Assembly: GCA_041658725.1 (NCBI GenBank)
Contig: JBAZZQ010000003.1
Span: forward strand, 22,903-86,902
Length of the DNA stretch: 64,000 bases
Source: Phycisphaerae bacterium
GTDB lineage: Bacteria; Planctomycetota; Phycisphaerae; JAAYCJ01
Reading direction: 5' to 3'
Part shown: piece by piece, positions 6,555-23,626 of the stretch
Layout: each line of letters opens with the position of its first letter
Position numbering within the stretch: the stretch's first letter is position 1
Made by a program: the position numbers and the translations under genes
Notes under the pieces: model-generated
Database searches by the model: none
What the model saw: the letters and a program-made list of their open reading frames with translations, nothing else
What the model was told of the DNA's origin: nothing

Positions 6555-8615
6555 CTAAACCCGTCGGCATAATTTGATGGATAGGGGATCTCCCCCCATT
6601 TCTTCAAATAAAACGAGGGTATTGTGGTCGTTAAGCCAGTCGGCCGGCACATGATAATACCGTTGCGTGGGCTTACCAGTCCCGATATCCTGTATCCCTT
6701 GTTGTTTGAGCCGCTCCGGGGTCTGGCCAACGGCAGGGGCCAGCCAGTAGCGGCACAGGCATCGGCCGTTAAGCCAAACCAAACCTTTGTTCATTCCCTG
6801 AAGGTCCAGAGTCCATGGGCCTAGGCCCTTTGGCCGATCGAATAGGGTCCGCCACCAACTCAGGGGCTTACTACGACCAGCCTTCTTCTTCCAAGGGACC
6901 AGGTCTCCCGCCTCCTCAAACACCCGCCATCGCTCGCCCGCCAAGCCCGGCTGAATTTGCCACGGACCGCCGATCGGGAGATCCTTCCACGTTACTTTTC
7001 CCCACAACCCTTTGCGTTCATTGACCATATTTTCCCCGCCGATCAGCCAATCTCCTTTGATCAGGCCCAACCCGCAGCATAGCAGCGATAACTCATGGGT
7101 TCCTGCTTTCAGGTTCAAAGGGAAGGACTGCGTGAAATTCGGCCCTGACATAGGACCACGCTCTTCAACCAAAGGGTTTGCCGTCCAGGCCACCAGTTTC
7201 TCATCCACGTAGACATAAACAAAATCCGCCACGCCCGTCAGGCGTAATTCCCCGGCCCCCGCATGGTGCGGAGACACCGCGAAGTTCGTCGAATACCGGC
7301 AATAATCGGTCTTGTCGAGGGTGAAGGTCAATTGCTCCACGGGTACATTAACCGTAATGACCGGGGCAGAATTCTTTTTCAGTTCCCTCCATTGGGTAAA
7401 GGCGGAGAATGTTTTTTTCAAGGGCTTCATTTTTCTCCGTACCGTCGAATCGGTGGAAATCTCGGCTGTATTCATAAGGACCTTCCCATCGGCTAGGAGG
7501 ATCACCGATTGTCCCGCCAGCAAATACTTGTTTTCTCGGTACTCCACTTTCGCTGGCGCACAATCGTCGTTGCACAGGAAGATCAGCGGTTCATAGTCGT
7601 AGGCGACCTGCTGGGGCCCGAAAACCTTCGGCTGCGGCGGGTCGCGGCGGAGCAACTCATCCGAAAATTTCCAAAGGATATGGTGCAGTCGGGACAAGTG
7701 ATTATACTTCGTCGTGACCAATCCGTATTCATCGAGGGGGGCATCAGAATCGTAACTTGTCGTCTGCAGGAACATTGCCTCACGGCCAAAATTCGTCCCC
7801 CCATGCCACATGTAATAATTGTTGCCGGTTCCTCCCCCGGCAAAAAATCTCGCGGCGGCGTAAGCCGTGTTTTCCGCAGAGCGAACATGATGCGGATATC
7901 CATAGGTGTCGTACCATGCCTGCCAGTTTTCCGACCATACTGCCGGCTGGTCCGGATGCTCCATAAAATGTTTTTCGAGCAGCCGATGACCAAACCAATC
8001 GTTGATGGTCTCGATCGCTCCGGGCATTCCCCCAAGGCACATTACCCAGGGTACTCCCAGGTTCTGAGCCAAGCCCAGATTAATCGCCCAGGTCAAATAT
8101 TTTTGCCCTTCTTGCCCGTACTGGCTTGCGATGAGGGCATATTCATTTTCAATTTGGGCGAGGATGATTGGCCCGCCATTGGGGGCAAATTCTGGCCGAA
8201 GGTAATCGCAGAGAAACCGAACCCACTGGGCCATCTCCCGTTTGAACGGCTCGTTATTTGTTCGCATCTGAATCCCAGGCTCGTCCCGCAGCCAGGAAGG
8301 AAATCCCCCATAATTCGTCTCCGCGCAGATAAAAGGTCCGATCCGCAGGATCACGTGCAACTCGCGCTCCTGGGCCAGTCGGCAGAAATATTTCAAGTCC
8401 AGCCGGTCGGAGAAATCATACACCCTGCGCTGTTGTTCATGAAGATTCCAGAAGACATACGTCTCAATGGCGTTTAACCCCGCCTTCCGGCTAAGATCCA
8501 TCAGCCTCGGCCACATTTCCCGGCTGCTCCGGGGATAGTGGATCGCCCCGCTCAAGAGCAACGTCCGTTTTCCGTTGATCGTCACTGCTCGGTGATCGTA
8601 ACTGACTGCGGTCAT
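6555..8615 (-). CDS. GH35 beta-galactosidase
   Basis: 686 aa. Carries GH35 hallmarks GPFICAETNYGGFPSWL and the acid/base motif IILAQIENEY. Confidence 0.9.
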   Translation of the reverse strand: MTAVSYDHRAVTINGKRTLLLSGAIHYPRSSREMWPRLMDLSRKAGLNAIETYVFWNLHEQQRRVYDFSDRLDLKYFCRLAQERELHVILRIGPFICAETNYGGFPSWLRDEPGIQMRTNNEPFKREMAQWVRFLCDYLRPEFAPNGGPIILAQIENEYALIASQYGQEGQKYLTWAINLGLAQNLGVPWVMCLGGMPGAIETINDWFGHRLLEKHFMEHPDQPAVWSENWQAWYDTYGYPHHVRSAENTAYAAARFFAGGGTGNNYYMWHGGTNFGREAMFLQTTSYDSDAPLDEYGLVTTKYNHLSRLHHILWKFSDELLRRDPPQPKVFGPQQVAYDYEPLIFLCNDDCAPAKVEYRENKYLLAGQSVILLADGKVLMNTAEISTDSTVRRKMKPLKKTFSAFTQWRELKKNSAPVITVNVPVEQLTFTLDKTDYCRYSTNFAVSPHHAGAGELRLTGVADFVYVYVDEKLVAWTANPLVEERGPMSGPNFTQSFPLNLKAGTHELSLLCCGLGLIKGDWLIGGENMVNERKGLWGKVTWKDLPIGGPWQIQPGLAGERWRVFEEAGDLVPWKKKAGRSKPLSWWRTLFDRPKGLGPWTLDLQGMNKGLVWLNGRCLCRYWLAPAVGQTPERLKQQGIQDIGTGKPTQRYYHVPADWLNDHNTLVLFEEMGGDPLSIKLCRRV

Positions 8616-8851
8616 TAAATGTCCTTTTCTGCAACTTGCATAACCAAGACTGGTTTATCCATTTGAAGGCGATCGTAGCGTATCGATCCACTGCTTCAAA
8701 TAATCAACAGTTAGAAAACAAGCATCTTCCATCTATCGTCAAACACAGACGAGATGCCTTGATCAAATTCTTGCCGAAAAGCCTCTTTAAAAAAATGGGA
8801 GGCTCTAAATATAATACTTGACTATTGATGTAAAATCAATTACAATACCAG

Positions 8852-8876
8852 TGTAACGTTCAGGTAAACGTTACAC
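8852..8876. promoter_or_regulatory. Imperfect palindrome GTAACGTTCA-GG-TAAACGTTAC, candidate LacI-family operator
   Basis: 10-bp inverted repeat (9/10 match) around an AACGTT core, about 20 bp upstream of the lacI-remnant start. The same element recurs upstream of the intact lacI. Confidence 0.4.
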
Positions 8877-8895
8877 TTAAAATGTAATATTTCAC

Positions 8896-9286
8896 GATGA
8901 AGAAGAGATCTTTTGCAACAATTCGGGACATGGCGTCGATGTCCGGGCGAATGGCCGTCCCGGGTGATCGACTGAAAGTGCGTGGATTTTCCAATTGATA
9001 TCCCCACGGCCCCGAATTGCTTCAAGAAACGGTTCTCGCACCCAGAGATATGGGAGGCCTTGGGTCCGAGCCTTGGTCCACGGCATCTGTCTGTTACAGC
9101 ACCTTGACCGCTCTGGAGCCATACGCCCCTGCTAGCGCAAGGGCATCGAGGTTCAGAAGGTTTTTGCCATGGTGGCCTTTGACGAGCTTTGGGAGCGGGC
9201 GGAAATCGCGTATCTGGCAAGGCCGTTCCAGCAAGATTCTACCGCTCCGATTGAATGTCCGGGAATCCATTTTCAAAATGCTCTAA
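8896..9286 (+). pseudogene. LacI-family regulator pseudogene (internally deleted, frameshifted copy of the 13968-15008 gene)
   Basis: The first ~13 codons (MKKRSFATIRDMA) match the intact lacI N-terminus, and homology resumes at the C-terminal third (VCYSTLTALE...ILPLRLNVRESIFKML). The copy has multiple deletions and frame changes and is about 390 bp versus 1041 bp. Confidence 0.75.
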
Positions 9287-9305
9287 CGAGATTTCAGTTT
9301 CAATT

Positions 9306-9330
9306 CCTCCGGGTTGTGTTGACCCGGAGG
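9306..9330 (+). promoter_or_regulatory. Stem-loop CCTCCGGGT-N7-ACCCGGAGG in the leader of gene 9366
   Basis: Perfect 9-bp inverted repeat. It lies 36 nt upstream of the ATG and is not followed by a U-tract, so it is a leader structure or operator rather than a canonical terminator. Confidence 0.3.
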
Positions 9331-9365
9331 GGTTGAAACAAAATGTGTAACTAGGGAGTACGAAA

Positions 9366-12300
9366 ATGAAAAAGGTGGTTCTGTGTCTGATCGGTCTTGG
9401 GATGGCGTTGACATTCCCAACGCTTGCGGCGGCAACGCCGCCCGCCCTGATCTTTGGGGCGGATTACAACTACAGCGGGATAGTCAAGGCCAACGAAAGC
9501 ATCACGGGGAATACGAACGTCCGCGCCCTTGGGAGCGGCTCGGAAGATTCCTTCGGTTTTTCTTTTCAGATCGCCGACGGGAAGTGGGGCGGCGGGATGG
9601 AGGTGCTTCCGGAGCAATACAGCAGCCGCGTCCGCTATGATGTTCCAGACAATTTCAGCACCAGCAACGGAATGGTGGAAGTCTGGTTCAAGATGACGGG
9701 AACAAACAACAGCGATACCTACCTGATCGACCTGGGAGGCGGAAATTATCTGAAGTGGGAGGTTTCGAGTTTGGACCTGGTGGCGGTGCTGGCGGGGGCG
9801 ACGGTGCGGTACCATGTCGGAAGTATCGACGATAACGCCTGGCACCACGCGGCCATGTCCTGGGGCGACGGCGGCCACTGGAAAACCGGCAAACGGCTGT
9901 GGTTCGACGGCTATGAACGGGCGTGGAACACCGGCCATACGACCGCCTTGAGCGGGGTGACGCACATCGGCGTGGGCGCGCCGAGCTATGGTGGGGTCAC
10001 GGCGATTATCTACGATGAACTGCATGTCTACGATGTTGGCTACAACGATTTGGTGTACTTTGCTCCGAACCAAGGCGAGCCGGGATACTACGGTGAGGTG
10101 GAGCCTCTGGCCACGCCCTATGCAAACCCGCCCGCCCTGATCTTTGGGGCGGATTACAACTACAGCGGGGTGATCAATGCCAACATGAGCATTAATGGAA
10201 GCACCCTGCTCCGTCCTGATGGCTCGGGGGAAGAGGATTCTTTCGGCGATCTGACCTCGGAGGCCACCGGATACGGCAAGTGGGGCGGCGGACTCCGAAT
10301 GGGGCCCAGCAACTGGAACAGCCGCGCCCGCTATGATGTTCCCGACAATTTCAGCACCGCCAATGGGATGGCGGAGGTCTGGTTCAAGATGATGGGGAAC
10401 AATGACAGCGATACCAACCTGATCGATCTTGGAGGTGGGAACTTTTTACGCTGGGAGGCCTCGAGCGGAGATTTGGTGGCCGTATTGGCGGGGGCAACGT
10501 TGCGATACAACGTCGGACAAATTGACAACGATACGTGGCACCACGCGGCCATGTCCTGGGGCGATGGCGGCCACTGGAAAACCGGCAAACGACTGTGGTT
10601 CGATGGCTATGAGCGGGCGTGGAATACCGGCCATACCACCGCCCTGAGCGGCATATCGCATGTCGGTGTGGGCGCGATTAGCTACGGCGGGAACACAGTC
10701 ATTATGTTTGATGAACTGCATGTTTACGATAGCGGCTACAACGATCTGGTGTACTGGTCTCCGAACCAGGGCGAGCCGGGATACTACGCGGAGGTTGGAC
10801 CCTTGATACCGCTTACGTATTCCATCAACACCGCCGCAGGTACACCCTTTAGTCCGGGCGTCCGAGGCCACCATCCTGAATGCATCGGGGTCCATCGCGG
10901 TGAATACACCACAGGAATTCCGAAGCTGTTGCCGGTTTCCGACGGCACGTTCCTGCGGGGCCTAGCGGCGGGCTTGAAGGCCGAAACCTACGACTGGCGC
11001 AACCGCTTTGAGTATGGCGTGCCGGCCAACGGGCTGGGTCAGCCGACGATCGAGTTTCTGCGATACCAGCGGGACCGGAATTCCAGCATGATCAATACCG
11101 TCAACACCCGGGGCCTGACGCGGCAGGTGGGACAAACGTGCGAGTATTATGATACGCGTCTGTCCACGCTGGTGAGCCTGGCGACCGACTGGGTGCGGTA
11201 CACCAACCACATCGTGCAGACGTACCGGCTGGGTGATACGATTTCCGACCCGAGAGATGCGGGCATTGTCAACTCCCTTTCCTGGAAAACACAAGGGGAT
11301 ACGTCCGATCAATTCGAGCCACTGCTTTTCCCCCAGGAAGCCGCAGTGCCCAAAGTGACGTATTGGGAGATCGGCAACGAACCGTCGATGAACTTGTCGG
11401 CAACTAATTCCTACACCCTGACCCCTGCTCAATTTCATGATCGGTACGCGGCGATCGCGGCGGCGATGAAGGCCGAAGACCCGACCATCAAGGTCGGCCC
11501 CAGTGACCTACCGGGTGGCGATTACATCAATGCGGTCGTGTCGGATCTCAGTTTGCCCGTGGACGTTGTCTATTACCACACGGTCTTCCGGGGCAACCTT
11601 GGGACAACCAATGTGGACGACATTATATCCCTTCTGAACGGTATCTACTGGGATGAAAGGAGCGTTATGGACCCGATTGTCGCCATCATTGCCGCCAGCG
11701 GACGTGATCCCGCGACCATTCCCCTGGCGATTACGGAATGGAACCCGGACTATGCCTATATGGATGCCCCTTCGATCGGACGCATGGCGCAAGCTCTGGG
11801 ATGCATGCAGGCGGTCTTCAGTTTTGCTCGGATGGGGATATTCGATGCCAATTACCTCAAGTGGCCGGCGGATACCCGGGACGGCATGGAGTACCCGGTT
11901 TACAAGGCTTGGCAGGTCCTCAACGACCACATGGGCGACACATTGGTTGACTTCTGGAACGAAGCGTGTTTCCAACTTTATACCACGAAAGATAACGCGA
12001 CGGGCCAAGTGGCGGTCTGGGGCCTGAACTTCAGCAATACCACCGACAAGACCATGCAGATATCCCTTGACCAACTCCCGCCAGGAGCGACCAATGTCAC
12101 ATGGAAGCATCTGGGGGCACTTTCCGGTCTCTCCACATTATTGACCGGGAATATTTCTGCGTACGATGCGGGTGGCCCTCAGGTGAATGTGGATTGGAAG
12201 ACTTGGGATTTAAGCGGCATCTCGACCTCAAGCCTGACGTTCCATGTTCCCCGCGCGAGCATGTGCGTGCTACTAGTCGGTTCACCGTCATTGAAGGTCA

Positions 12301-13463
12301 GCCCGCAGACCCAGACGGTCTTCTGGCCGGCCGCGCAATTCAACATCACCGTGAACAATTCCGGGGCTGGAACCCTGGATTGGACTGCCGCAGTCATCTC
12401 CGGAGCGAGCTGGCTTTCCATTGGCACGACCAGCGGGACCGACCACGGGACAATTACCGTCAGCGCCGATGAAAACTCCACCGCTGCCGCCCGAACGGGA
12501 ATCATCCGTGTAACGTCCGGTGCCGTATCCAAAGACGTGACGGTGGTGCAATCCACCATGCCGCCGACTTCGAACATCACTTCGCCGCTCCAGGACAATA
12601 CGTCCACCGCTCCGGCTACTATTGCCATCACGGATAATGCCACCGATAGCAACGGCACGATCAACAAGGTGGAATTCTACAACAACGACGTCTTGCTGGG
12701 CACAGATAACAACAGTTCCGGCGGATGGACCTACAGTTGGGCGAACGTGGCGGCCAGCGGCGACCATGGAATCAGTCTGACCGCGAAAGCCTACGATAAC
12801 GACAACATGAGTACGACGTCCAACCCAGTCACCATTACCGTCACTGACAGTGCCCTCAAGTGTTATTGGAAGCTCGACAATACGAGTGGCACTACGGCGG
12901 TCGACTCATCGGGCATCGGCAACGTCGGCACCACGTACAACAGCCCAAGTTGGGTGACGGGAAAGATAAGCAACTGCCTATCTTTTGATGGTTCCAACGA
13001 TTACGTCCAGAAAACCAGTGCTTCGAGTCTGCCGGCCGCCAACGCCAACCAGACCGAGTGTTTCTGGTTCTATGTCTCAAGTAACCCTTCAGCCAAGAAG
13101 ACCGCTCTGGCTGTTACGGGCAGTTCCTCAGCCGTCAATATCGGGTTTGTGAGTAGTAGCGGGATGAAGTTCGGAGTGTGGAAGTATAACAACACCGTCC
13201 TGGTCAAGGCCGCCATGCCCGCGGCCGGGGCCTGGCATCATGCTGCCTACACAAAGAGCGGCAGCACCAACACCTTGTACATCGACGGTTCTCCGGTAAA
13301 TACCTCCACCACGAGCACCAATACGGCGTCGGCGACGACAATCAACGCCGGACGTACTGCCAGCGGCGCGTACTATTGGCCTGGTAAATTGGATGAAATC
13401 CGCATCTATAACCGAGCTTTGTCGGCGACGGAAATTGCCGCCTTGGCGCAAGGCAAACAATAG
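9366..13463 (+). CDS. Secreted multidomain glycoside hydrolase: signal peptide, 2x LamG-like modules, GH-A clan (GH39/GH30-like) TIM-barrel domain, BACON-like domain, Ig-like domain, C-terminal Laminin_G_3 domain
   Basis: - 1365 aa with a signal peptide (MKKVVLCLIGLGMALTFPTLAAA).
- Two ~220-aa repeats carrying WHHAAMSWGD, KRLWFDG and YDELHVYD (LamG-like).
- GH-A clan acid/base motif YWEIGNEPS and nucleophile motif LAITEWNPDY.
- BACON-like segment SWLSIGTTSGTDHGTITVSADENSTAAARTGIIRV...VTVVQ.
- C-terminal LamG signature LDEIRIYNRALSATEI. Confidence 0.85.
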   Translation: MKKVVLCLIGLGMALTFPTLAAATPPALIFGADYNYSGIVKANESITGNTNVRALGSGSEDSFGFSFQIADGKWGGGMEVLPEQYSSRVRYDVPDNFSTSNGMVEVWFKMTGTNNSDTYLIDLGGGNYLKWEVSSLDLVAVLAGATVRYHVGSIDDNAWHHAAMSWGDGGHWKTGKRLWFDGYERAWNTGHTTALSGVTHIGVGAPSYGGVTAIIYDELHVYDVGYNDLVYFAPNQGEPGYYGEVEPLATPYANPPALIFGADYNYSGVINANMSINGSTLLRPDGSGEEDSFGDLTSEATGYGKWGGGLRMGPSNWNSRARYDVPDNFSTANGMAEVWFKMMGNNDSDTNLIDLGGGNFLRWEASSGDLVAVLAGATLRYNVGQIDNDTWHHAAMSWGDGGHWKTGKRLWFDGYERAWNTGHTTALSGISHVGVGAISYGGNTVIMFDELHVYDSGYNDLVYWSPNQGEPGYYAEVGPLIPLTYSINTAAGTPFSPGVRGHHPECIGVHRGEYTTGIPKLLPVSDGTFLRGLAAGLKAETYDWRNRFEYGVPANGLGQPTIEFLRYQRDRNSSMINTVNTRGLTRQVGQTCEYYDTRLSTLVSLATDWVRYTNHIVQTYRLGDTISDPRDAGIVNSLSWKTQGDTSDQFEPLLFPQEAAVPKVTYWEIGNEPSMNLSATNSYTLTPAQFHDRYAAIAAAMKAEDPTIKVGPSDLPGGDYINAVVSDLSLPVDVVYYHTVFRGNLGTTNVDDIISLLNGIYWDERSVMDPIVAIIAASGRDPATIPLAITEWNPDYAYMDAPSIGRMAQALGCMQAVFSFARMGIFDANYLKWPADTRDGMEYPVYKAWQVLNDHMGDTLVDFWNEACFQLYTTKDNATGQVAVWGLNFSNTTDKTMQISLDQLPPGATNVTWKHLGALSGLSTLLTGNISAYDAGGPQVNVDWKTWDLSGISTSSLTFHVPRASMCVLLVGSPSLKVSPQTQTVFWPAAQFNITVNNSGAGTLDWTAAVISGASWLSIGTTSGTDHGTITVSADENSTAAARTGIIRVTSGAVSKDVTVVQSTMPPTSNITSPLQDNTSTAPATIAITDNATDSNGTINKVEFYNNDVLLGTDNNSSGGWTYSWANVAASGDHGISLTAKAYDNDNMSTTSNPVTITVTDSALKCYWKLDNTSGTTAVDSSGIGNVGTTYNSPSWVTGKISNCLSFDGSNDYVQKTSASSLPAANANQTECFWFYVSSNPSAKKTALAVTGSSSAVNIGFVSSSGMKFGVWKYNNTVLVKAAMPAAGAWHHAAYTKSGSTNTLYIDGSPVNTSTTSTNTASATTINAGRTASGAYYWPGKLDEIRIYNRALSATEIAALAQGKQ

Positions 13464-13707
13464 AACGGACCAATACTGTTCATGCTTATAAGTAGGCAAT
13501 CAGCAGTGTAGCCGAAACTAAGCAAGACGATCAAAACGGTGGGTCGAAAGACCTGCCGTTTTCTTATTCCAAGATCGATTTGACCATCGTTCAAATTCTG
13601 GGACTTAAAAGCGCGTAAAGACTTTGCATTAGACGTGAGTTGTTTAAAATGCCATCTCTCAAAATTGTACTGATAATATATTGTCATTAATATGCTTAAA
13701 AAAATCT

Positions 13708-13841
13708 CGTAACCGTTCAGGCCACCTTCCGTCATTGCGAGCGCAGCGAAGCAATCTCGTAATGACGCCGGTTAATGAAGGAACGAGATTGCTTCGTCGC
13801 TGCGCTCCTCGCAATGACCACGAGGTGGTCTGAACGGATAC
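13708..13841. mobile_element. MITE-like element (~134 bp) with imperfect terminal inverted repeats and a 7-bp flanking direct repeat
   Basis: TIR-L CGTAACCGTTCAGGCCACC and TIR-R GGTGGTCTGAACGGATAC match at 16 of 18 positions as reverse complements. The interior is a further long imperfect palindrome (GTCATTGCGAGCGCAGCGAAGCAATCTCGT / ACGAGATTGCTTCG..CTCGCAATGAC). AAAATCT lies immediately outside both ends. Confidence 0.45.
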
Positions 13842-13922
13842 AAAATCTTATGCCCCAAAAAAAAGGAATATTCGAAAAATTAAGGGCTTGACTTTTATCG
13901 CAAAAGAAATTATATTGGATAG

Positions 13923-13946
13923 TGTAACGTTCAGGTGAACGTTATA
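13923..13946. promoter_or_regulatory. Imperfect palindrome GTAACGTTCA-GG-TGAACGTTAT, candidate LacI autoregulatory operator
   Basis: 10-bp inverted repeat (9/10 match) located 22 bp upstream of the lacI ATG. It is a paralog of the 8852-8876 element. Confidence 0.4.
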
Positions 13947-13967
13947 TTGTAAAGGTAATGTTCCACC

Positions 13968-15008
13968 ATGAAGAAAAGTTCTTTCGCGACAATTCGGGAC
14001 GTAGCGGCGGCGGCTGGGGTGTCCATGACCACAGTGTCAGACATCATTACGGGGCGATCTGATCGGTTTAAGGAAGAGACATTAATGCGGGTCCGCAAGA
14101 CGGCGGAAAAGCTCAGTTACCGGCCCCATCTGGGGGCTTCGGCGATGCGAAGCCAACGGTTCAATACCATCGGTCTGATCCTTTCGCAGTCACCGTTTTA
14201 CGAGGCCAAATTAGTTGAGGGCGTGGATGAAGTCGCTCATGCCCGGGAACTCGGGCTCATGCTGGTTCACATCGGCCCTGCGGAAGAGGATTTGCCGAGC
14301 TTGGTTACCCACAACCAGGTGGATGGGTTGATCGTGGACTGGACCTCTCCGAAGAAGATCGGAGTGGCAATTGAGAACTATCGTATTCCCGCCGTCTGGG
14401 TCAACAACGATCAGCATGCCCCGGAGAACTGCATCTGGCCGGACGACGAGGCGGGCGGGCGAATGGCCACGGAACATCTGATTGCTCTTGGTCATCGGCG
14501 AATCGCATTTTTGCGAGTTCCCCAGGCCATGCACCCTAGTCAGGAATTTCGATTGAAGGGTTATTGCCAAGCGTTGACCGAGGCGGGTTTGGAGCCCCGG
14601 GTGATCGACTGCGAGTGCTTGGATTTTCCCTTGGATATACCCACGGATCCGAATTGCTTTAAGAACCGGTTCTCACACCCGGAGATATGGGCGGACATGG
14701 AAACGGGATCCTGGCCCACGGCGTTTGTCTGTTACAGCACCTTGACCGCCCTGGAGCTATACGCCGCCTGCCAGCGTAAGGGCGTCGAGGTCCAGAAAGC
14801 CTTCGCCGTGGTGTCCTGTGACGAGCTTTTGGAGCGGGTGGAAATCGCGTATCCCGCCATCACCACCGTGGTGGTGGACCATGCCCTGATGGGGCGTCTG
14901 GCCGTGGACATGCTCTGCGAACGGATCGAAAACAATGGCAAGGCCGTTCCCAGCAAGATACTGCCGCTCCGATTAAATGTCCGGGAGTCCAGTTTCAAAA
15001 TGCCCTAA
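13968..15008 (+). CDS. LacI-family transcriptional regulator
   Basis: 346 aa. N-terminal HTH reads ATIRDVAAAAGVSMTTVSDII, followed by a periplasmic-binding-protein-like sugar-binding fold. Confidence 0.9.
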   Translation: MKKSSFATIRDVAAAAGVSMTTVSDIITGRSDRFKEETLMRVRKTAEKLSYRPHLGASAMRSQRFNTIGLILSQSPFYEAKLVEGVDEVAHARELGLMLVHIGPAEEDLPSLVTHNQVDGLIVDWTSPKKIGVAIENYRIPAVWVNNDQHAPENCIWPDDEAGGRMATEHLIALGHRRIAFLRVPQAMHPSQEFRLKGYCQALTEAGLEPRVIDCECLDFPLDIPTDPNCFKNRFSHPEIWADMETGSWPTAFVCYSTLTALELYAACQRKGVEVQKAFAVVSCDELLERVEIAYPAITTVVVDHALMGRLAVDMLCERIENNGKAVPSKILPLRLNVRESSFKMP

Positions 15009-15087
15009 CGAGATTTTAGTTTCAAATTCGCCGGGTTGTGTTGATCCGGAGGGGTTGAAACAAAATGTATAACAAAGGAGTACGAAA

Positions 15088-15912
15088 ATGAAAAGTGTGG
15101 TATTGGGTCTGATCGGTCTTGGGATGGTGTTGATATTCCCGACGCTTGTAGCGGCAACGCCGGACTACCTGGTCTTTGGGGCGGATTACAACTACAGCGG
15201 GGTGGTCAACGCCAACGAAAGCATTACGGGAAGCACGGTGATCCGTCCGCAGGGATTAACTGACGGCGATTCCTTTGGAACGATCACTCAGGTCGCGGGT
15301 GGGAAATACGGCGGAGGGATGTTGGTGGCACCCAACGAGAATAATCAGCGAACCCGGTATGATGTGCCCAGCGGGTTCAGCACCAGCAACGGGATGGCGG
15401 AAGTCTGGTTTAAACTCGAATCGGCCGATAAGATTACTCTGCTCGATCTGGGTGGGGACAACCTTGTGCGGTGGGACCCCGGCAACGGCAACCTGAACAC
15501 CTATTTGGGTTCGGCTGGCCTGTACTGGTACGCGGGGAATATCGCCGACGGCAATTGGCACCACCTGGCCGTGAGTTGGGGCGACTCAGCCAATTGGAAG
15601 AAAGGTAAACGGGTGTGGTTCGACGGTGCGAACGTGGCTTGGAACGATGGCGATTACTCTCTCTTGAACCCAACTTCTTATATCGGCACCCAGGAAGCAA
15701 ATGCTGCCGGGGGCGGGAACGTTTATTTTGATGAACTCCATGTCTATGGTCCAGGCTGGCAGAACCTCGTGTACTTTGCTCCGGGCCAAGTCGCGCCGGG
15801 TTACGTCGGCGAAATCACCGGGTTGGCCGCGGCCGTACCCGAGCCGGCAACCTTGATTTTATTGATGTCGGGATTAGTCGGTTTCATCGTCCGCAGACGA
15901 ACCATCGCATAA
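15088..15912 (+). CDS. Secreted LamG-like module protein with PEP-CTERM sorting signal
   Basis: 274 aa. Has a signal peptide and one copy of the ADYNYSGVVNANESITGS...WHHLAVSWGD...KRVWFDG...FDELHVYG module. C-terminus is VPEPATLILLMSGLVGFIVRRRTIA (PEP motif, TM helix, basic tail). AGGAG RBS. Confidence 0.85.
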   Translation: MKSVVLGLIGLGMVLIFPTLVAATPDYLVFGADYNYSGVVNANESITGSTVIRPQGLTDGDSFGTITQVAGGKYGGGMLVAPNENNQRTRYDVPSGFSTSNGMAEVWFKLESADKITLLDLGGDNLVRWDPGNGNLNTYLGSAGLYWYAGNIADGNWHHLAVSWGDSANWKKGKRVWFDGANVAWNDGDYSLLNPTSYIGTQEANAAGGGNVYFDELHVYGPGWQNLVYFAPGQVAPGYVGEITGLAAAVPEPATLILLMSGLVGFIVRRRTIA

Positions 15913-16040
15913 GCTAAAAACGATTTATCAGCCGGACCGCCTTCGCAAGCGATCCGGCTCTTTGAGGCACGTGTCCCAGATCGGTCCGAGGTTGTCGCCT
16001 CGGCGAAGCAAGGTATATAATTACATAAAGGAGAATCAAG

Positions 16041-19000
16041 ATGGGTACGAGAAAAATTGGTTATGGAGTGATGTTGGTGTCCTTGTCGATCATTCTTGCC
16101 CACACGGCGGTTTCGCAAGCAACGCCGGATTATCTAATCTTTGGGGCCGATTACAACTACAGCGGGGTGGTCAATGCCAATGAAAGTATTACTGGAAGCA
16201 CTGAACTCCGGCCGGAGGGCTCGGGGGGAGGAGACTCCCAAGGTACGATAACCCAGGTCACCGGGGGAAAATACGGAGGGGGTATGTTGGTGGCCGCCAT
16301 GGGGAATGATCAGCGGACGCGGTATAGTCTGCCCAGTGGGTACGACGCTTACAACGGGATGGTGGAAGTCTGGTTTAAAACGTCTAATGCGGACGATAAG
16401 CTTACCCTGCTCGTTGTGGGTGAGGACAACCTTGTGCGCTGGGATCCAAGCACTGGCAACCTGACTGCCTACCTAGGCTCGGCCGGCATGACCTGGTACG
16501 CGGGGAATATCGCCGACGGTAATTGGCACCACGTGGCCTTGAGTTGGGGTGATTCCGCCAATTGGAAGAAAGGCAAACGGCTGTGGTTTGACGGTGCAAA
16601 CGTGGCGTGGAGCGATACGAACTACTCCGTCATGAACCCGGCTACTTATCTCGGTACTCAAGAAGGAAATGCCGCCGGTGGCAATGGAGACGTTTATTTT
16701 GATGAGCTGCATCTCTATGGTCCAGGCTGGCAGAACCTTGTGTATAACTTGGGCGGAGCGCCGGGTTATTTCGGCGAAGTCGGTCCGTTGGCCGAGGCCC
16801 TCCCGGGAACAACCCCGGTGGGTATGGTCTTTGGCGCCGATTACAATTCCGCCGGGATCATCAATGCCAATACGAGCTCAACGGCCAGCAAGAACGTCCG
16901 TGCCCCTGGGAGCGGACCGGAAGATTCCTACGGTCTTTCTTTCCAGCTTGCCGACGGGAAATGGGGCGGCGGGATGAAGGTGCTGCCGGACCAAAGCAAC
17001 AGCCGCGTCCGCTATGATGTTCCAAGCGGTTTCAGCTCCGACAACGGGATGGTGGAAGTCTGGTTCAAGATGACGGGAACCAACAACAGTGACACCAACC
17101 TGATCGACCTGGGGGGCGGGAATTTCCTGCGGTGGGAGGTTTCCAGCGGAGACCTGGTGGCGGCGATGGGGGCGGCGGTAGTGCGATACAACGTCGGGCG
17201 AATCGACGACAATACCTGGCACCATGCGGCCATCTCCTGGGGTGCAGGCGGCACATGGAAACGGGGTAAACGACTGTGGTTTGATGGTGCGAACCGAAAT
17301 TGGAACGATGGCGACTTCACCCCCTTGAGCGGCGTGACGCATATCGGCATAGGTGCGCCAGGCTATGGCGGCGGGGATACGGCAATTATTTACGATGAGC
17401 TTCATGTCTATGACGTTCGCTACAATGACTTGGTGTACTTGGCTCCGAGCCAAGGCGAGCCTGGATACTCCGCGACGATTGGTCCCTTGTTTCCGGCTCT
17501 TGCCACCCCAACCACGGTCTATACCATCAACACCGCCGGGGGCACGTCCTTTAGTCCGGGCGTCCGAGGTCACCATCCCGAATGTGTCGGTGTCCATCGC
17601 GGGGAATACCTCCGGGGCATTCCGAAGGTCCTGGCGGTCTCGGACGGTACGTTCCTGAGGGGTCTGGCGGCCGGGATGAAGGCCGAGACCTACGATTGGC
17701 GAAACCGGTTTGAATATGGTGTGCCCGCGAACGGACTGGGCCAACCGACGATTGATTTCCTGCGTTATCAACGGGATCGAAACTCCACGATGATCAACAC
17801 CGTCAACACCCGGGGCTTGACGCGGCAGTCGGGAACGACCTGCGAATATTACGACACGAACATTACTACCTTAACGAACCTGGCCGCTGATTGGGTTCGC
17901 TACACTAACCACATCGTGCCGACGTATCGGCTGGGCAATACGATCACCGACCCGAGAGACGCGGGGATTCTCAACTCCCTTTCCTGGAAGACGGAGGGTG
18001 ATACGGCGGATCAATTTGAACCCCTGCTTTTCGCCCAGGAAAGCGCGGTCCCCAAAGTCATGTACTGGGAGATCGGAAATGAACCATCCTCGAACTTGTC
18101 GGCGACCAATTCCTATGTGTTGACCCCGGCCCAATATCGGGCTCGGTATCAGGCAATCACGGCGGCGATGAAGGCCGAAGATACGACCATCAAAGTCGGT
18201 CCGAGCGACGTGACGGCCGGAACTTACATTGACGAGGTCGTGTCGGATTCTTCTTTGCCGGTGGACATCGTTTATTATCACGCGACCTTTAGCGGCGATC
18301 TCGGGTCGCTTACCGATTCAAGTCAAATTCAAAACTTCTTGAACAACATCTATAGCGGTCAGCAGAGCCTCAAGAATGGGATTACGTCGATCATTTCCGC
18401 CAGCGGGCGAGACCCTGCAACCATTCCTCTGGCGATTACGGAATGGAACCCGAACTATTCATTGGCGGATACCCCTTCTGTCGGACGCATGTCGCACGCT
18501 CTGGGGTGCATGGAGACGGTGTTCAGCTTTGCCCGGCTGGGAATCTTCGATGCCAATTACCTCAAGTACCCGGCGGATTGCCGGGACGGGATGGAGTACC
18601 CGGTCTATAAGGCTTGGCAGGCTCTCAACGACCACATGGGCGATGTTCTGGTGGACGTCCATACCGAAACCGATTTCCGGATGTACACGACGAAAAACAG
18701 CGCGACGGGCCAGGTGGCGGTCTGGGGCTTGAATTTCAGTGACGCCAACGACAAGACCATGCAAATTACCCTCGACCAACTACCACAAGGTGTTACCAAT
18801 GCCACGTGGATGCGTTTGGGCGCCCTCTCCGGGACCAGCACGTTGCTGAGCGGAAATATATCTTGGTACGATGGCGGCCCTCAAGTGGACGTGGACTGGC
18901 GGACGTGGGACGTGAGCGGCATCTCGACTTCGAGCCTGACGTTCCAGGTTCCCCGCGCGAGCATGTGCGTACTGGTGGTGGGAACCTCGTCGCTAAAGGT

Positions 19001-19430
19001 TTCCCCGCAGACGCAAACTGTTTTCTGGCCCGCCACCTCGTTTGCGGTGACGGTTGGGAATACCGGAGGCGGTGCCCTAAGCTGGACGGCCCAGGTAATT
19101 TCTGGAACAGACTGGCTTTCCATTAACGTGGCCAGTGGGACCGATCACGGGACGATTCTCGTGACCGCCGCACAAAACTCCTCCGCTGCCCGAACGGGAA
19201 TCATCCGCGTGACGTCCGGTTCCGTATCCAAAGACGTTACGGTGGTGCAGGGCGGGCCCGTGACCATCCCCGGAGATGTCAACGGGGACGGCGTGGTCAA
19301 TGCGGACGATCTGTCGATCGTGCTGACGAATATGGATTCCAAGCCTCCGACGGATGCCCGTGCGGACTTGGATCAGGACGGTGAAGTCACATCGTCCGAC
19401 CTGGCGATCGTGCTGGCAAATATGCCATAA
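16041..19430 (+). CDS. Secreted multidomain glycoside hydrolase paralog: 2x LamG-like modules, GH-A clan domain, BACON-like domain, C-terminal type-I dockerin
   Basis: 1129 aa. The GH core is about 75% identical to gene 9366 (YWEIGNEPSSNLS, LAITEWNPNYS). C-terminal dockerin repeats are DVNGDGVVNADDLSIVL and DLDQDGEVTSSDLAIVL. Confidence 0.85.
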   Translation: MGTRKIGYGVMLVSLSIILAHTAVSQATPDYLIFGADYNYSGVVNANESITGSTELRPEGSGGGDSQGTITQVTGGKYGGGMLVAAMGNDQRTRYSLPSGYDAYNGMVEVWFKTSNADDKLTLLVVGEDNLVRWDPSTGNLTAYLGSAGMTWYAGNIADGNWHHVALSWGDSANWKKGKRLWFDGANVAWSDTNYSVMNPATYLGTQEGNAAGGNGDVYFDELHLYGPGWQNLVYNLGGAPGYFGEVGPLAEALPGTTPVGMVFGADYNSAGIINANTSSTASKNVRAPGSGPEDSYGLSFQLADGKWGGGMKVLPDQSNSRVRYDVPSGFSSDNGMVEVWFKMTGTNNSDTNLIDLGGGNFLRWEVSSGDLVAAMGAAVVRYNVGRIDDNTWHHAAISWGAGGTWKRGKRLWFDGANRNWNDGDFTPLSGVTHIGIGAPGYGGGDTAIIYDELHVYDVRYNDLVYLAPSQGEPGYSATIGPLFPALATPTTVYTINTAGGTSFSPGVRGHHPECVGVHRGEYLRGIPKVLAVSDGTFLRGLAAGMKAETYDWRNRFEYGVPANGLGQPTIDFLRYQRDRNSTMINTVNTRGLTRQSGTTCEYYDTNITTLTNLAADWVRYTNHIVPTYRLGNTITDPRDAGILNSLSWKTEGDTADQFEPLLFAQESAVPKVMYWEIGNEPSSNLSATNSYVLTPAQYRARYQAITAAMKAEDTTIKVGPSDVTAGTYIDEVVSDSSLPVDIVYYHATFSGDLGSLTDSSQIQNFLNNIYSGQQSLKNGITSIISASGRDPATIPLAITEWNPNYSLADTPSVGRMSHALGCMETVFSFARLGIFDANYLKYPADCRDGMEYPVYKAWQALNDHMGDVLVDVHTETDFRMYTTKNSATGQVAVWGLNFSDANDKTMQITLDQLPQGVTNATWMRLGALSGTSTLLSGNISWYDGGPQVDVDWRTWDVSGISTSSLTFQVPRASMCVLVVGTSSLKVSPQTQTVFWPATSFAVTVGNTGGGALSWTAQVISGTDWLSINVASGTDHGTILVTAAQNSSAARTGIIRVTSGSVSKDVTVVQGGPVTIPGDVNGDGVVNADDLSIVLTNMDSKPPTDARADLDQDGEVTSSDLAIVLANMP

Positions 19431-19591
19431 GAAAGTGTACAATAGAACGACATATAGGAAGAAAATGTGTTCCCTACGGAACCCGTAGTACATAAATGCC
19501 CTTTCAGGGCTGTGGCGGTCCGCCTGACCGTGGACCGCTGCAATCGAAGAAGTAGTCGAGTAGGCAAGTAAAAAAAGTAGGAAGAAAAACC

Positions 19592-20362
19592 ATGGAGGTT
19601 GCTTTGAATCCAAAATCGAAAATTCAAAATCCCATACACGGTTTTACCCTTATTGAACTCCTGGTCGTGGTGGCAATCATCGCGGTGCTGATCTCGATTT
19701 TGCTTCCGGCGCTGAGCCAGGCAAGGGAGACGGCCCGCGCAGTATCCTGTTCCAGCAACCTGCATCAAATGGGGCTTGGGTTTATGATGTATGCGTCCGA
19801 CTACCAGGAGAAATTCCCTCCCTATGCGACCAGCAGCAATTGGGGGCGGTTTGCCTGGAAAATCGAGTGGTGGCCAAGTAACTCGTGCACAGGGCCACGG
19901 GTCCTGGCGGAAAAGAATTACATCGATCACAGCGGAGGGCTTTACGCGTGCGCCGCGGCCAAGCATCCCAGCGGGGCGGCTTACTATCGATGGTCTTCCT
20001 GGATGTTGGACGCCGAGCCGCCCGGAGCTATGGATTATGCGTACCTGGGAAACAATTATTTTTTGTCCGACTATGGCCGGGGATATGCCTATTCGCCCGC
20101 GGGATTAAATTCCCGATTCTACTTGACGAAGATCGAAAGCGCTGATGTCACCGGGTTTCCCTTGATGCAGGACTGGGCCTCCGATTATTGGTATACGTGG
20201 AACGAGTCCCCCCAGAACATTACCTGGCACCAGAAAAAGATGAACGTTCTCATCGTAGACGGCCATGTGACCACCGTCAATTACATGGACAACCGCCATT
20301 GGGCCACGTATACGGGATTTTGTTTCAACGGCTCCGGGCTGGGGTACGCCTACCAACCGTAA
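19592..20362 (+). CDS. DUF1559 / H-X9-DG domain protein with prepilin-type N-terminal cleavage/methylation domain (pseudopilin-like)
   Basis: N-terminal [31 protein letters not shown]-terminal [15 protein letters not shown] fits the H-X9-DG pattern. 256 aa. Confidence 0.85.
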
Positions 20363-20386
20363 GGCGGTGTCCGCTTTTTATTATCC
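20363..20386 (+). terminator. Possible weak rho-independent terminator (GGCGG-tgt-CCGC + TTTTTATTAT)
   Basis: Short GC stem followed by a T-tract directly after the DUF1559 stop codon. The stem is only 4-5 bp. Confidence 0.3.
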
Positions 20387-20398
20387 TGAAAGGTTTCC

Positions 20399-23300
20399 AT
20401 GCCGACAAAAACGATGAATTGGATCGTGTTGTTTTTTTTTCTTTCGCTTCTCGCTCGGTCTGTCGCGGCAGATGAGCCAAGCCCCGGGCCGTATCACCTG
20501 ATCTTTGGCATCGGCCTGCATGACGAAGGGGCCTTCACCCCCGTCGGTCAATCCGACGGCATGACGTTCATTGTCGAGCTGCGGTGCGATAACGAAACAA
20601 AAGAGATCTTTCGCCGTCACCGGCCCAAGGAGAACCATGCCCCGGAATATTTCTCGGCGGATATGTCACCGTGGGCGGGACGAACGATCCGGCTGCGGTT
20701 CATCGCCGATCCGGGGCCGAACCACAATGCCGCCTACGATTGGGGCGTTTGGATCGAACCGCGAATCGTCCGCGGGGTTGTACCCCCCAAGTGGTGGGAA
20801 CGGAAAAACCTGTTTCAAAGCGACAAACTTCGGGTCATCTTCGATGCCGTCGACTCTTATGAAAAGGCAACCCTCGGAGTTGGAGATAAAATCGGCTTGC
20901 GGGCAGGAGCTCAATTTAATCCCTGTTCCGTTCCGATCGGTTGGGGACTTCTTGGGTTTGCGGAAAAGTATAGCGGAAAGAAAAAAGTCCGCGGTATCCT
21001 GCACGAACCGGCATGGGATAACGAAGCCACCCTGAGTTGGGCACAATACACGTTGGTCCTGAACCTGGCGGGAACGCTCGTGAGTTCCGACACCGGCTCG
21101 AACACTAAGCGGATGGACACCTCGCAAGCGGCCCGAGCCGTTCGCCGACTTGACGAGGCCGCAACTCTGGGAAAAGAGTTGGATGCCCTGATCGCCCGGG
21201 GCCGGCGCCAGGGGTTGCAGATGCGGATGCCTCGGGTGACCGCGGCTGTGCTCAAGGTCTTTGTTCCGCGGCTCCGTGAGGATTTGGACGGGATTGCCTG
21301 GTACTGCGGACCGAATTTCCCCGGTTGGTTTTACAATAAAGGTACTCCGCCGGGATACGTCACGGTCAAAGTCAAAATGGCGGAAAAATCGCCCAAGGAC
21401 ATCTATCCCCCGGCTTTCATCGAGGAACGAAAACAGCGGGGAATCCTGCTCGCTCCCTACTTGGTGCAGACCGCGGGTCGTGCCCTGGCCGAGGCCCGCG
21501 AAATCCTCGCCCATCCCGAGGCGGATGTCAAGTTTCCCGAATATGATATGGGGAAATTGAAAATTCGCGACGGCTATTTCTATGACGGCGATCAACCCGC
21601 TCTCCTGACGGGTCTTTACACCAATCGGGACGTTAAACAAGACTATGACGCCATCTCGGAGATGGGGATATGCTTTACCCAGCCCGAGCGGTTGAACGTG
21701 TTTACCACCCTCGTTGGAGAGCAAGAAACCAGTCGAGGCTTCATCGATTCCTTTGTAGTTCGGGATACCCTGGAACCCGCTGGAAAGGCCAACATCGGTT
21801 GCCTCTTTGACCTGGGCTTACATTACCTGCCGGAGTGGGCGTATAAGAAATATCCCGACCTGACCAATCCGGGTTCGGACCACAATCACTACGCCCCTTA
21901 TCTGGTGACGTCGAAGGGCTTCCGCGACGTTGTCCGATGGTACCTGGACCAACTCGTTCCCACGACGGCCAAGTTTCCCATGACTCTGGGCTACGAGATG
22001 GGCAATCAGCCCTTCCTGAATCCCTGGTCGCCGGCGGTAATCCGTCAATTCCAAGATTGGGCGAAAATGGAATACAAGACGATCGATGCCGCCAACCAAC
22101 AATGGCTCAGTACCTTTACGTCCTTCTCCCAAGTTCAACCCGATAAGAATTTCCGGTTGATCCAGCCGGTGGGTCTGCGTTACGATTGGGTGAAATTCCA
22201 ACATCGGATCACCGGGGAATGGTACCGCTGGCTGAAGGCCGAATTGAACAAACACGATCCCCACGGCTGGGTGGAAGTCCAGCCGGCGGGCAACTTTTTT
22301 GATCCGCAGAAGTTTCCCGGCCACGATGCCCATCGCGTCGCCATCGACGAAGTTGACCTCTACCGAAATATTACGGATATCAGCGGGATCGACGCCTGCA
22401 CGTGGTTCTGGGGCCGGTTGGTCTACGACCAGGGCGGACAGTTTTACGACCTGCTGCGTTCGATCGCCCCGGCCAAGCCAATCGTTAATTTTGAGTACGG
22501 CCTGAGTACCTACAATTCCAAGACAATCTGGGACCCGGCCTACATCCGTGGGTCGTTGTGGTACAGTTATCTCCACGGAATGGGTGGCTGCACGACATGG
22601 ATATGGACCCTCGCGGAAGAACGCGATGAAACCCAAACCAATACCCTGGCCCGGTGGCCTGACAGGATCGAAACCTTCGGACGAACGGCCTTGGAACTCC
22701 GCCGCCACGCCCGGGCGATTGCGGCCTTCGGACGACCCTCGTCCGAGGTGGCCATGCTGTATCCGGCCCCCGCCCGGTGGTTCGCGGGAACAGGGCCGAG
22801 CGACTATTTTGAACAAGCCCGTGCCATGTGGAACGCCGCGTCCTTCCTCGATACTTCATTTGATTTTATCACCGATGAACAAATTACCGAAGGCCGATTG
22901 ACCCGCTATAAAATCCTGCTCATTCCATCGTCACCATACATGCAGGACGGCAGTTATCGGCATATTCAGAAATTTGTCCATCAGGGCGGAATTCTTCTCA
23001 CCAACGGCGGGTTGGGCTTCGACGCTTATGGCCATTCGCGTGAGACGGAGGATTTCCTGGGTTCCGCCCGGAATGCGGACCACTATGCCGTGGCCAGGGA
23101 AGCCGGAAAGAAATTCGGGCGCGGGATAGTGTATAACGTCCTTCCTACCTCGGCCGGAGCGTATGGTCTCCTGTTCCGGAGAATTTATGACCAAGCGGGG
23201 ATATCACGCCCGGTCCGTGTGAAAATGCAAACTGGATTGCCCAATTGGACAATCGAGGCCCGAACGGTAAAGGAAACGGATCGGGCTAACCAATATCTTT

Positions 23301-23470
23301 TTTATTGCTTCAACCTTGGAAACCGGGCAGAACAGATATTGATAACACTCCAGAAGGGTATGGTCATAGCGGGAAGGGACTTGATTTCGAACCGAAAATT
23401 TGAACCTGTGATTACGTTGAATCCTCTGGAAATTTGCATGTGGCGGTTTGTGAAATCGGATACAAAATGA
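20399..23470 (+). CDS. Secreted GH42-like glycoside hydrolase with ~330-aa N-terminal extension
   Basis: - 1023 aa with a signal peptide.
- TLGYEMGNQPF...FQDWAKMEYKTIDAANQQW resembles the GH42 acid/base region (xNEYG...W.kkYgtldaLN.aW).
- YKILLIPSSPYMQDGSYRHIQKFVHQGGILLT resembles the GH42 middle (trimerisation, GATase-like) domain. Confidence 0.5.
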   Translation: MPTKTMNWIVLFFFLSLLARSVAADEPSPGPYHLIFGIGLHDEGAFTPVGQSDGMTFIVELRCDNETKEIFRRHRPKENHAPEYFSADMSPWAGRTIRLRFIADPGPNHNAAYDWGVWIEPRIVRGVVPPKWWERKNLFQSDKLRVIFDAVDSYEKATLGVGDKIGLRAGAQFNPCSVPIGWGLLGFAEKYSGKKKVRGILHEPAWDNEATLSWAQYTLVLNLAGTLVSSDTGSNTKRMDTSQAARAVRRLDEAATLGKELDALIARGRRQGLQMRMPRVTAAVLKVFVPRLREDLDGIAWYCGPNFPGWFYNKGTPPGYVTVKVKMAEKSPKDIYPPAFIEERKQRGILLAPYLVQTAGRALAEAREILAHPEADVKFPEYDMGKLKIRDGYFYDGDQPALLTGLYTNRDVKQDYDAISEMGICFTQPERLNVFTTLVGEQETSRGFIDSFVVRDTLEPAGKANIGCLFDLGLHYLPEWAYKKYPDLTNPGSDHNHYAPYLVTSKGFRDVVRWYLDQLVPTTAKFPMTLGYEMGNQPFLNPWSPAVIRQFQDWAKMEYKTIDAANQQWLSTFTSFSQVQPDKNFRLIQPVGLRYDWVKFQHRITGEWYRWLKAELNKHDPHGWVEVQPAGNFFDPQKFPGHDAHRVAIDEVDLYRNITDISGIDACTWFWGRLVYDQGGQFYDLLRSIAPAKPIVNFEYGLSTYNSKTIWDPAYIRGSLWYSYLHGMGGCTTWIWTLAEERDETQTNTLARWPDRIETFGRTALELRRHARAIAAFGRPSSEVAMLYPAPARWFAGTGPSDYFEQARAMWNAASFLDTSFDFITDEQITEGRLTRYKILLIPSSPYMQDGSYRHIQKFVHQGGILLTNGGLGFDAYGHSRETEDFLGSARNADHYAVAREAGKKFGRGIVYNVLPTSAGAYGLLFRRIYDQAGISRPVRVKMQTGLPNWTIEARTVKETDRANQYLFYCFNLGNRAEQILITLQKGMVIAGRDLISNRKFEPVITLNPLEICMWRFVKSDTK

Positions 23471-23626
23471 CCACCATCAACGGGGGTTAGAGAAAATTTG
23501 AAACCTCTCCATAAGAGTCGGTGAGTATAATGAAGGTAGCAGGCGATAAGCAGTCGGTAATTTTGTTAGGATCGGCAATTGAATCGGCAGAGTGAAGTTC
23601 ATACATATCCCTTTGGTAAACCGGCA

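Follow-up and report, generated by a model that had tools for sequence, protein, structure and literature searches.

Planctomycetes break down complex polysaccharides, and the ways in which they capture and take up these substrates are poorly understood. In other polysaccharide-degrading bacteria, it is familiar to find one binding module that is common to enzymes and to a surface protein, with variable anchoring tails. For the Phycisphaerae, a planctosome of cohesin/dockerin and LTD proteins has already been hypothesised (PMC6461901). Here we describe a sugar-utilisation gene cluster of an uncultured Phycisphaerae planctomycete, found in a stretch of 64,000 nucleotides that we call the window (contig JBAZZQ010000003.1, positions 22,903 to 86,902). 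It is predicted to encode two large secreted glycosidases (genes A and C) and one small surface-anchored protein (gene B), and all three carry the same LamG-like module.

The reading that we favour, and consider reasonably probable, is that these genes form the extracellular part of a locus for carbohydrate utilisation under LacI control, with A and C being recently duplicated secreted glycosidases and B a surface lectin. It is built on what was established directly: the domains and their class of fold, the conserved catalytic residues, the duplication and mosaicism of the locus, and synteny.

The shared module, the enzyme domain and the tails

The three genes lie on the forward strand at 9366-13463 (A, 1365 amino acids (aa)), 15088-15912 (B, 274 aa) and 16041-19430 (C, 1129 aa), just where an earlier reading of this DNA (the original prediction) had placed them. 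That reading took them for a contiguous tandem array in a region starting at 8840. The array is in fact interrupted by an intact lacI gene (13968-15008, forward strand, 346 aa) between A and B, and the start at 8840 is merely that of a spurious minus-strand open reading frame (ORF); the element found there is a lacI pseudogene (8850-9286, forward strand). Window positions 5088-25912 (20.8 kb) recur with 100% identity in a second assembly (ENA contig, L023), and a contig of 77% identity (L001) has the same junction of the lacI end, B and the start of C. The arrangement is therefore not an assembly artefact.

The module is about 225 residues long. A six-frame hidden Markov model (HMM) search of the whole 64 kb finds five full copies, two in A (residues 24-255 and 256-487), one in B (24-246) and two in C (28-250 and 251-490), each with an E value of 1e-96 to 1e-106, in agreement with the original count. 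The sole further match is weak (E 3e-4), to the canonical LamG_3 domain at the C-terminus of A. Alignment of the copies (BLASTP, MAFFT) gives 72 invariant columns, among them the motifs quoted in the original prediction. In this alignment, the copies fall into two subtypes. The alpha subtype consists of A1 (9435-10130, itself a mosaic), A2 (10131-10826) and C2 (16791-17510), with 63-73% identity, and the beta subtype of B (15157-15825) and C1 (16122-16790), with about 75-76%; identity between alpha and beta is 44-51%.

Several lines of evidence point to a LamG-like fold, as originally proposed. A profile of 11 module sequences aligned by hhalign with the C-terminal LamG_3 of A gives a probability of 88.6% (E 2.6e-6), and the module motifs EVWFK, WHHxAxSW, LWFDG and DELHVY align on the LamG_3 core ECFWFY, WHHAAYT, LYIDG and DEIRIY. 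The AlphaFold2 (AF2) model, which was made for A1, is a two-sheet concanavalin A (ConA)-like jelly roll of 14 strands, with a predicted template modelling score (pTM) of 0.77 and a mean predicted local distance difference test score (pLDDT) of 71. Its top structural matches are lectin or carbohydrate-binding module (CBM)-like, that is, carbohydrate-recognising, domains, and a sequence search of the PDB with the module gave nothing significant. Two distant relatives, P0125 and P0127, exceed the threshold of the Laminin_G_3 model (PF13385), with 42.3 and 44.8 bits. On profile alignment and modelling, the module is thus predicted to be a divergent LamG/ConA-like jelly roll.

This module subfamily is very rare. 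When 1.84 billion representative proteins were searched exhaustively with the module profile, no more than six matched at E<1e-10, namely A itself (P0123), P0124 (a 1316-aa enzyme with two modules), B, and the small B-like proteins P0125, P0126 and P0127, all other matches being generic LamG. The last three have tails of PEP-CTERM type (for P0126 a Pfam match just under the cut-off; for P0125 and P0127 read by eye). Scanning 185,579 species genomes with the module profile returned generic LamG relatives only (27-50% identity, short partial matches) and no new loci; a scan of JGI metagenome contigs likewise had no true members among the matches listed, these being generic, partial LamG at 27-50%. 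Rarity was judged from the exhaustive search. Word-indexed searches with B and with the module profile gave two and four proteins respectively, and missed A, C, P0124 and P0126. Such a search misses A although P0123 is in the representative library, and its family sizes are therefore underestimates.

The original prediction took the module to be a binding or catalytic head that carries one enzymatic activity. The enzyme is a different domain, which it had overlooked: a central clan GH-A domain of about 490 residues between the modules and BACON, present only in A (10827-12290) and C (17511-18989), and 77% identical between them. It contains the motifs YWEIGNEPS and LAITEWNP. A single-sequence PDB search with it gave a weak match to GH39 structures, and a profile of 57 sequences matched GH51 arabinofuranosidases (E 3e-10) and GH39 xylosidases (E 3e-7). 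In clan GH-A, the glutamate of the NEP motif is the acid/base and a second glutamate is the nucleophile. Here N184-E185 and E304 are invariant in the 57 homologues and line up with the GH39/GH51 catalytic motifs, giving A its NEP acid/base and TEW nucleophile motifs. The AF2 model (pLDDT 93.5) is a TIM, or (β/α)8, barrel with a C-terminal β-sandwich, for which Foldseek lists GH51 first, then GH39 and GH44 (E 1e-20 to 1e-16, best TM 0.67, about 14% identity). At family level there is no match: PF01229 (GH39) scores 15.6 bits in C against a cut-off of 26 and is not found in A, and an NCBIfam scan of A and C found no family model. At least 141 homologues were found, mainly in metagenome-assembled genomes of Phycisphaerae, Tepidisphaeraceae, Pirellulales and Sumerlaeaceae. 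Given the conserved catalytic glutamates, the fold and the lack of a family-level match, A and C are predicted to be retaining glycosidases of their own uncharacterised clan GH-A group, distantly related to GH51 and GH39.

The tails are as the original prediction described them, and all of them exceed curated cut-offs. A has BACON (12291-12554; 39.4 bits, cut-off 25), a Big_7 Ig-like domain (12564-12773; 40.6, cut-off 24.1) and the canonical Laminin_G_3 (12987-13439; 97.6 taken alone, cut-off 27.6). B ends in a PEP-CTERM tail (15832-15900, residues 249-271 of 274; PF07589 28.1 bits, cut-off 20.7; TIGR02595 25.4, cut-off 16), reading VPEPATLILLMSGLVGFIVRRRTIA, with VPEP, a hydrophobic helix and RRR. 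C has BACON (18993-19256; 36.4 bits, cut-off 25; the model in both genes is PF13004) and a type-I dockerin (19269-19412, residues 1077-1124; Dockerin_1, PF00404, 34.2 bits, cut-off 22.9), whose two calcium-loop repeats, DVNGDGVVNADD and DLDQDGEVTSSD, follow the pattern D-x-[ND]-x-[DNS]-G. The profile searches and the structure prediction that had been proposed as checks thus recognise PEP-CTERM, Dockerin_1, BACON and Laminin_G_3, and give a jelly roll for the module, and neither of the outcomes named as refuting that prediction was seen. The signal peptide, said to be the same in all three, is common to A and B, which share it together with the 5' leader (88% DNA identity); that of C is distinct (26% identity to that of A).

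What does not stand is the idea of one enzyme placed on three anchors. Since B has no catalytic domain, the activity is confined to A and C, and the protein with the PEP-CTERM anchor is non-catalytic; the Laminin_G_3 tail of A is a further putative binding domain and no anchoring device. Nor is the variety of tails a strong reason for calling the arrangement unusual, as had been claimed. At least 41 of 120 homologues of the glycoside hydrolase (GH) domain have a PEP-CTERM-like tail by a regular-expression test, and a Pfam scan of 55 found LTD in 8, PEP-CTERM in 7 and Dockerin_1 in 3. Tail variation is the norm in planctomycetal enzymes of this family. In several relatives (P0037, P0040, P0052, P0070 and P0102), a dockerin-like segment lies immediately N-terminal to the PEP-CTERM tail, which argues that the two are combined and are not alternative anchors; in P0124 such a segment precedes a hydrophobic C-terminal helix without PEP.

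Related loci and the explanations considered

The gene following C (19592-20362, forward strand) encodes a prepilin-type N_methyl/DUF1559 protein, matching PF07963 (N_methyl, 32.4 bits) and PF07596 (SBP_bac_10/DUF1559, 47.9 bits), with the H-X9-DG C-terminal motif slightly under its cut-off (16.9 against 19); the original prediction had already named it as pseudopilin-like. In every related locus it lies next to the small module protein with PEP-CTERM. One such locus is that of P0124 on a 525-kb contig (L022), which is syntenic with the window: GH2 (minus strand), P0124, LacI, a small module protein with PEP-CTERM, DUF1559, a 1023-aa GH42-like protein and a fused binding-protein/permease. P0124 itself has a signal peptide, two modules, the GH domain, two BACON domains, a dockerin and a hydrophobic C-terminus. 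L024, L025 and L026 retain the order LacI, small module protein, DUF1559 pseudopilin and glycosidase, with a GH42-like enzyme downstream in L025 and a GH10 enzyme in L026. The contigs of L024 and L025 break off within the LacI and GH genes, which were recognised there by reading the sequence and not by profile search. L024 and L026 have an extra PEP-CTERM protein of about 245 aa without a Pfam match. The cassette of LacI, small PEP-CTERM protein, DUF1559 and glycosidase (L022 14123-17006, L024 2-3722, L025 1-1961, L026 1331-5146) is thus present in all five loci with visible context. The small one-module proteins of P0125, P0126, P0127 and L022 are about 260-280 aa long and 26-46% identical, and B has an orthologue, P0002, at 78% identity.

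Between the GH domains of A and C the identity is 77%, against 62-64% to P0124, which implies that the enzyme was duplicated within the lineage of the window. The modules have a more tangled history. In a sliding window, A1 resembles B and A2 over its first 30 or so codons; its middle is like C2, and around columns 150-180 it is like A2. Such mosaic identities indicate gene conversion. The module of B is 75% identical to C1 and just 33% to those of the small proteins elsewhere, and a distance tree places it among the enzyme modules, from which it follows that modules have been exchanged between the lectin gene and those of the enzymes.

The module motifs form the LamG_3 structural core, and the tandem modules precede a catalytic domain in the chain. 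For both reasons, and in view of its fold relatives, the module most likely serves in carbohydrate binding and is not an enzyme. It most likely gives the enzymes and the surface lectin one substrate specificity. B is most likely a non-catalytic, lectin-like glycan-binding protein, which its tail would hold at the cell envelope through the PEP-CTERM/exosortase system. From the observations above we infer glycan binding by the module, localisation, substrate and regulation, and they can be put together as follows. A and C would be secreted and would bind their substrate through the LamG-like modules, with B showing the same module on the cell envelope. The oligosaccharides released would be taken up by the adjacent ATP-binding cassette (ABC) importer, which has a fused binding-protein/permease, and be trimmed by the neighbouring GH42-like, GH35, GH2 and GH63-like enzymes. 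A single intact LacI would repress both units through two identical operator-like palindromes, and gene A would be transcribed from the relic promoter of a decayed lacI copy. The galactosidase-type neighbours hint at galactose-containing glycans as the substrate.

Some observations weigh against this account. Each lone module stays under the Laminin_G_3 gathering threshold of 27.6 bits (24.8 for A1 and C2, 20.6 for B, no match for A2 and C1), and the module model is moderately confident (mean pLDDT 71), with the first 30 or so and last 30 or so residues below 50. An exosortase was not found among the scanned ORFs of the window, and neither was a cohesin in any scanned ORF of at least 200 aa. 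The promoter, operator and terminator assignments are consensus matches only. A classification of the locus as a cellulosome was rejected because no cohesin was found in the window.

It is possible, though we hold it rather doubtful, that the cassette and not the enzyme array is the conserved unit, with lectin and pseudopilin forming a planctomycetal device for the capture and hand-over of glycans, a functional analogue of the SusD/SGBP layer (SGBP, surface glycan-binding protein) in the polysaccharide utilisation loci of Bacteroidota. The binding module would then have been copied onto secreted enzymes in some lineages, to give an enzyme and a receptor of one specificity. If true, this would be the first clue to what the huge DUF1559 family does in Planctomycetes-Verrucomicrobia-Chlamydiae (PVC) bacteria, and one new family each of CBMs and of clan GH-A enzymes would be defined.

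We think it unlikely that the module is a protein-protein docking unit, by which the PEP-CTERM-fixed B would act as a surface scaffold and A and C would attach by LamG-LamG contacts in a cellulosome-like manner, the dockerin of C adding a further partner. The closeness of B to C1 compared with the small proteins of other loci, together with the mosaic modules, would fit co-evolution of partners, the pairing of an enzyme with a small protein of common module is kept in L022, and the planctosome hypothesised for Phycisphaerae would fit as well. However, gene conversion among adjacent repeats yields the same pattern of similarity without any interaction, the nearest structural relatives are carbohydrate-recognising domains, and the visible few kb of the L024 and L026 contigs have no module-bearing enzyme. 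That no cohesin was found in the window also speaks against docking.

Somewhat less probable still is a catalytic module, a ConA-fold glycanase or lyase of GH16 or polysaccharide lyase (PL) type, which would make A and C bifunctional and B a small surface enzyme. The module does have invariant acidic residues (E82, D156 and D192, with E193 nearly invariant), but these belong to motifs aligned on the LamG_3 core of the C-terminal domain of A, which is non-catalytic, and the module alignment contains no GH16-type ExDxxE motif. Two tandem copies N-terminal to a bona fide catalytic domain are a typical CBM arrangement, and the lectin or CBM-like structural matches point the same way. Finally, that B is a functionless and decaying by-product of duplication, a truncated enzyme copy with a chance hydrophobic tail, would suit a locus in flux (a lacI pseudogene, mosaic modules, a 5' end of A copied from the lacI-B junction) but is very improbable and largely refuted by conservation, as the ORF of B is intact, with a signal peptide and a PEP-CTERM tail that profiles recognise; B is also conserved in P0002, and its architecture recurs beside LacI and pseudopilin in the other small proteins.

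Regulation, history and surroundings of the locus

The intact LacI (Pfam and NCBIfam) exceeds the cut-offs of PF00356, PF00532 and PF13377, and so has both the N-terminal helix-turn-helix and the sugar domain, which is of periplasmic-binding-protein type. A search of the window for the simple 12-bp LacI palindrome TGTAACGTTACA gave no match; the true repeat is a longer, bipartite palindrome of 21 bp, GTAACGTTCAGGTRAACGTTA, with only two sites in the window, at 8853-8873 (GTAACGTTCAGGTAAACGTTA) and 13924-13944, where none is expected by chance. Both lie directly downstream of a promoter-like TTGACT-17-TAnAnT. For the decayed lacI, this is TTGACT-17-TACAAT at 8818-8846 (forward strand), homologous to the site at 13888-13916 of the intact gene, whose promoter-like site and palindrome together span 13888-13944 (forward strand). 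The palindrome is probably the LacI operator. It is worth adding that the copy at 8853-8873 also faces the divergent GH35-GH2 genes.

Of the pseudogene, the first 17 codons survive, together with fragments of the C-terminal part that are spread over three frames. It contains two in-frame stops and has lost residues 18-210 and 298-322, but retains the promoter-like site and the operator-like palindrome. It leads straight into a copy of the lacI-B intergenic region and a B-type signal peptide, which is now the start of gene A. The promoter-like site of the decayed copy now probably drives A. We infer that lacI and B are co-transcribed over their 80-nt gap, and C may have a promoter-like site of its own at 15992-16021. 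A terminator-like hairpin (13533-13562) lies 3' of gene A as a consensus match.

The pseudogene marks a segmental duplication of the lacI-B junction, which now forms the 5' end of gene A. Either a tandem duplication of enzyme-lacI-B or an unequal crossover between B and A1 is a candidate route in this one genome. The ancestral order would have been one enzyme with a dockerin tail, lacI, the small PEP-CTERM lectin and the pseudopilin. In the lineage of the window, the enzyme and the lacI-B junction were then duplicated and modules exchanged between the copies, with C retaining the ancestral dockerin tail and A gaining Big_7 and LamG_3. The locus illustrates how a cluster can be rebuilt by duplication, pseudogenisation and module exchange.

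The spacer between A and lacI contains a composite inverted repeat of about 150 nt (13701-13849), with nested arms of 27, 14, 11 and 11 nt. The window contains no other copy of it, Rfam gives no match, and the spacer preceding the lacI pseudogene lacks it; possibly it is a small mobile element or one of REP (repetitive extragenic palindromic) type. An Rfam scan of 8000-21000 gave no match.

Beyond the DUF1559 gene lies a GH42-like protein with a signal peptide (20399-23470, forward strand, 1023 aa), which is syntenic in L022 and L025. The wider locus also includes GH2 and GH35 (no signal peptides visible by eye), a DUF5054 protein, a fused substrate-binding protein (SBP)-permease, a second permease, a GH63/MGH1-like enzyme, a GFO/IDH/MocA oxidoreductase, a xylose-isomerase-like TIM protein and a MalK-type ATPase. 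The fusion joins SBP_bac_1 and BPD_transp_1 in a single 1004-aa ORF (23579-26593), and the same fusion (952 aa) is seen in L022. Four barely annotated members lie in or beside the carbohydrate cluster (1339-3366, 28629-30512, 101-1318 and 3391-4473), these being the DUF5054 protein of 675 aa and three ORFs of 360-627 aa without a Pfam match at E<=0.001. An ORF of 1459 aa on the minus strand (55234-59613) has as its sole match a weak N-terminal DUF748 (19 bits, below cut-off); it may be an envelope protein like AsmA/TamB, and has no relation to the module or the enzymes.

Comparison with known systems

Three leads follow from the locus. The first is a probable new family of carbohydrate-binding module, rare and LamG-like, found on enzymes and on a stand-alone surface protein. 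The second is the uncharacterised clan GH-A family, with more than 140 members in Phycisphaerae, Pirellulales and Sumerlaeota, in which PEP-CTERM, dockerin or LTD tails are routine. The third is the conserved neighbourhood of PEP-CTERM lectin and DUF1559 under LacI, which could help to assign a role to DUF1559. Searches of the literature on planctomycetal dockerin and PEP-CTERM proteins, on PEP-CTERM proteins with a CBM or glycoside hydrolase, and on DUF1559 turned up neither this arrangement nor the pairing of a PEP-CTERM protein with DUF1559, and no function for DUF1559.

Gene C resembles the modular carbohydrate-active enzymes (CAZymes) with tandem CBMs and a type-I dockerin, both cellulosomal and non-cellulosomal, as far as PMC6461901 reports them from Peer et al. 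2009, in its signal peptide, binding-type modules, clan GH-A domain and C-terminal Dockerin_1 with two calcium-loop repeats. It differs from them in that its host is a planctomycete, that no cohesin or scaffoldin was found in the window, and that its relatives carry the dockerin-like segment before a PEP-CTERM or hydrophobic tail. The catalytic domain of A and C has the (β/α)8 barrel, β-sandwich, and NEP and (T/D)EW motifs of GH51 α-L-arabinofuranosidases and GH39 β-xylosidases, whereas its low identity to solved structures (about 14%), its Pfam GH39 score (15.6 against 26), the lack of an NCBIfam model and the grouping of its at least 141 homologues set it apart. Unlike LamG_3/ConA-like CBMs such as CBM66, CBM40 and domain 4 of the GH43 AbnA, the module has an N-terminal part of about 70 aa with an invariant FGADYN-type motif, stays under the Pfam cut-off and is extremely rare (six proteins).

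B agrees with the PEP-CTERM/exosortase substrates (Haft et al. 2006) in its VPEP, hydrophobic helix and RRR, and in passing both profile cut-offs. It differs in its passenger, a lectin-like module which the neighbouring glycosidases carry as well, and no exosortase was found in the window. The likeness to the SGBP/SusE-F proteins of Bacteroidota polysaccharide utilisation loci is by analogy only, in that a non-catalytic surface protein stands beside the outer enzymes of a regulon, with a substrate that is presumably common to them. There is no sequence relation, the anchor is PEP-CTERM and not that of a lipoprotein, an ABC importer, and possibly DUF1559, takes the place of SusC/D, and the regulator is LacI. 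Taken as a whole, the locus is a modular CAZyme and surface binding protein within a regulated utilisation locus, a fairly ordinary system. What is less ordinary is the rarity of the module, its presence both in enzymes and in a stand-alone PEP-CTERM protein, and the conserved pairing of that protein with DUF1559 under LacI.

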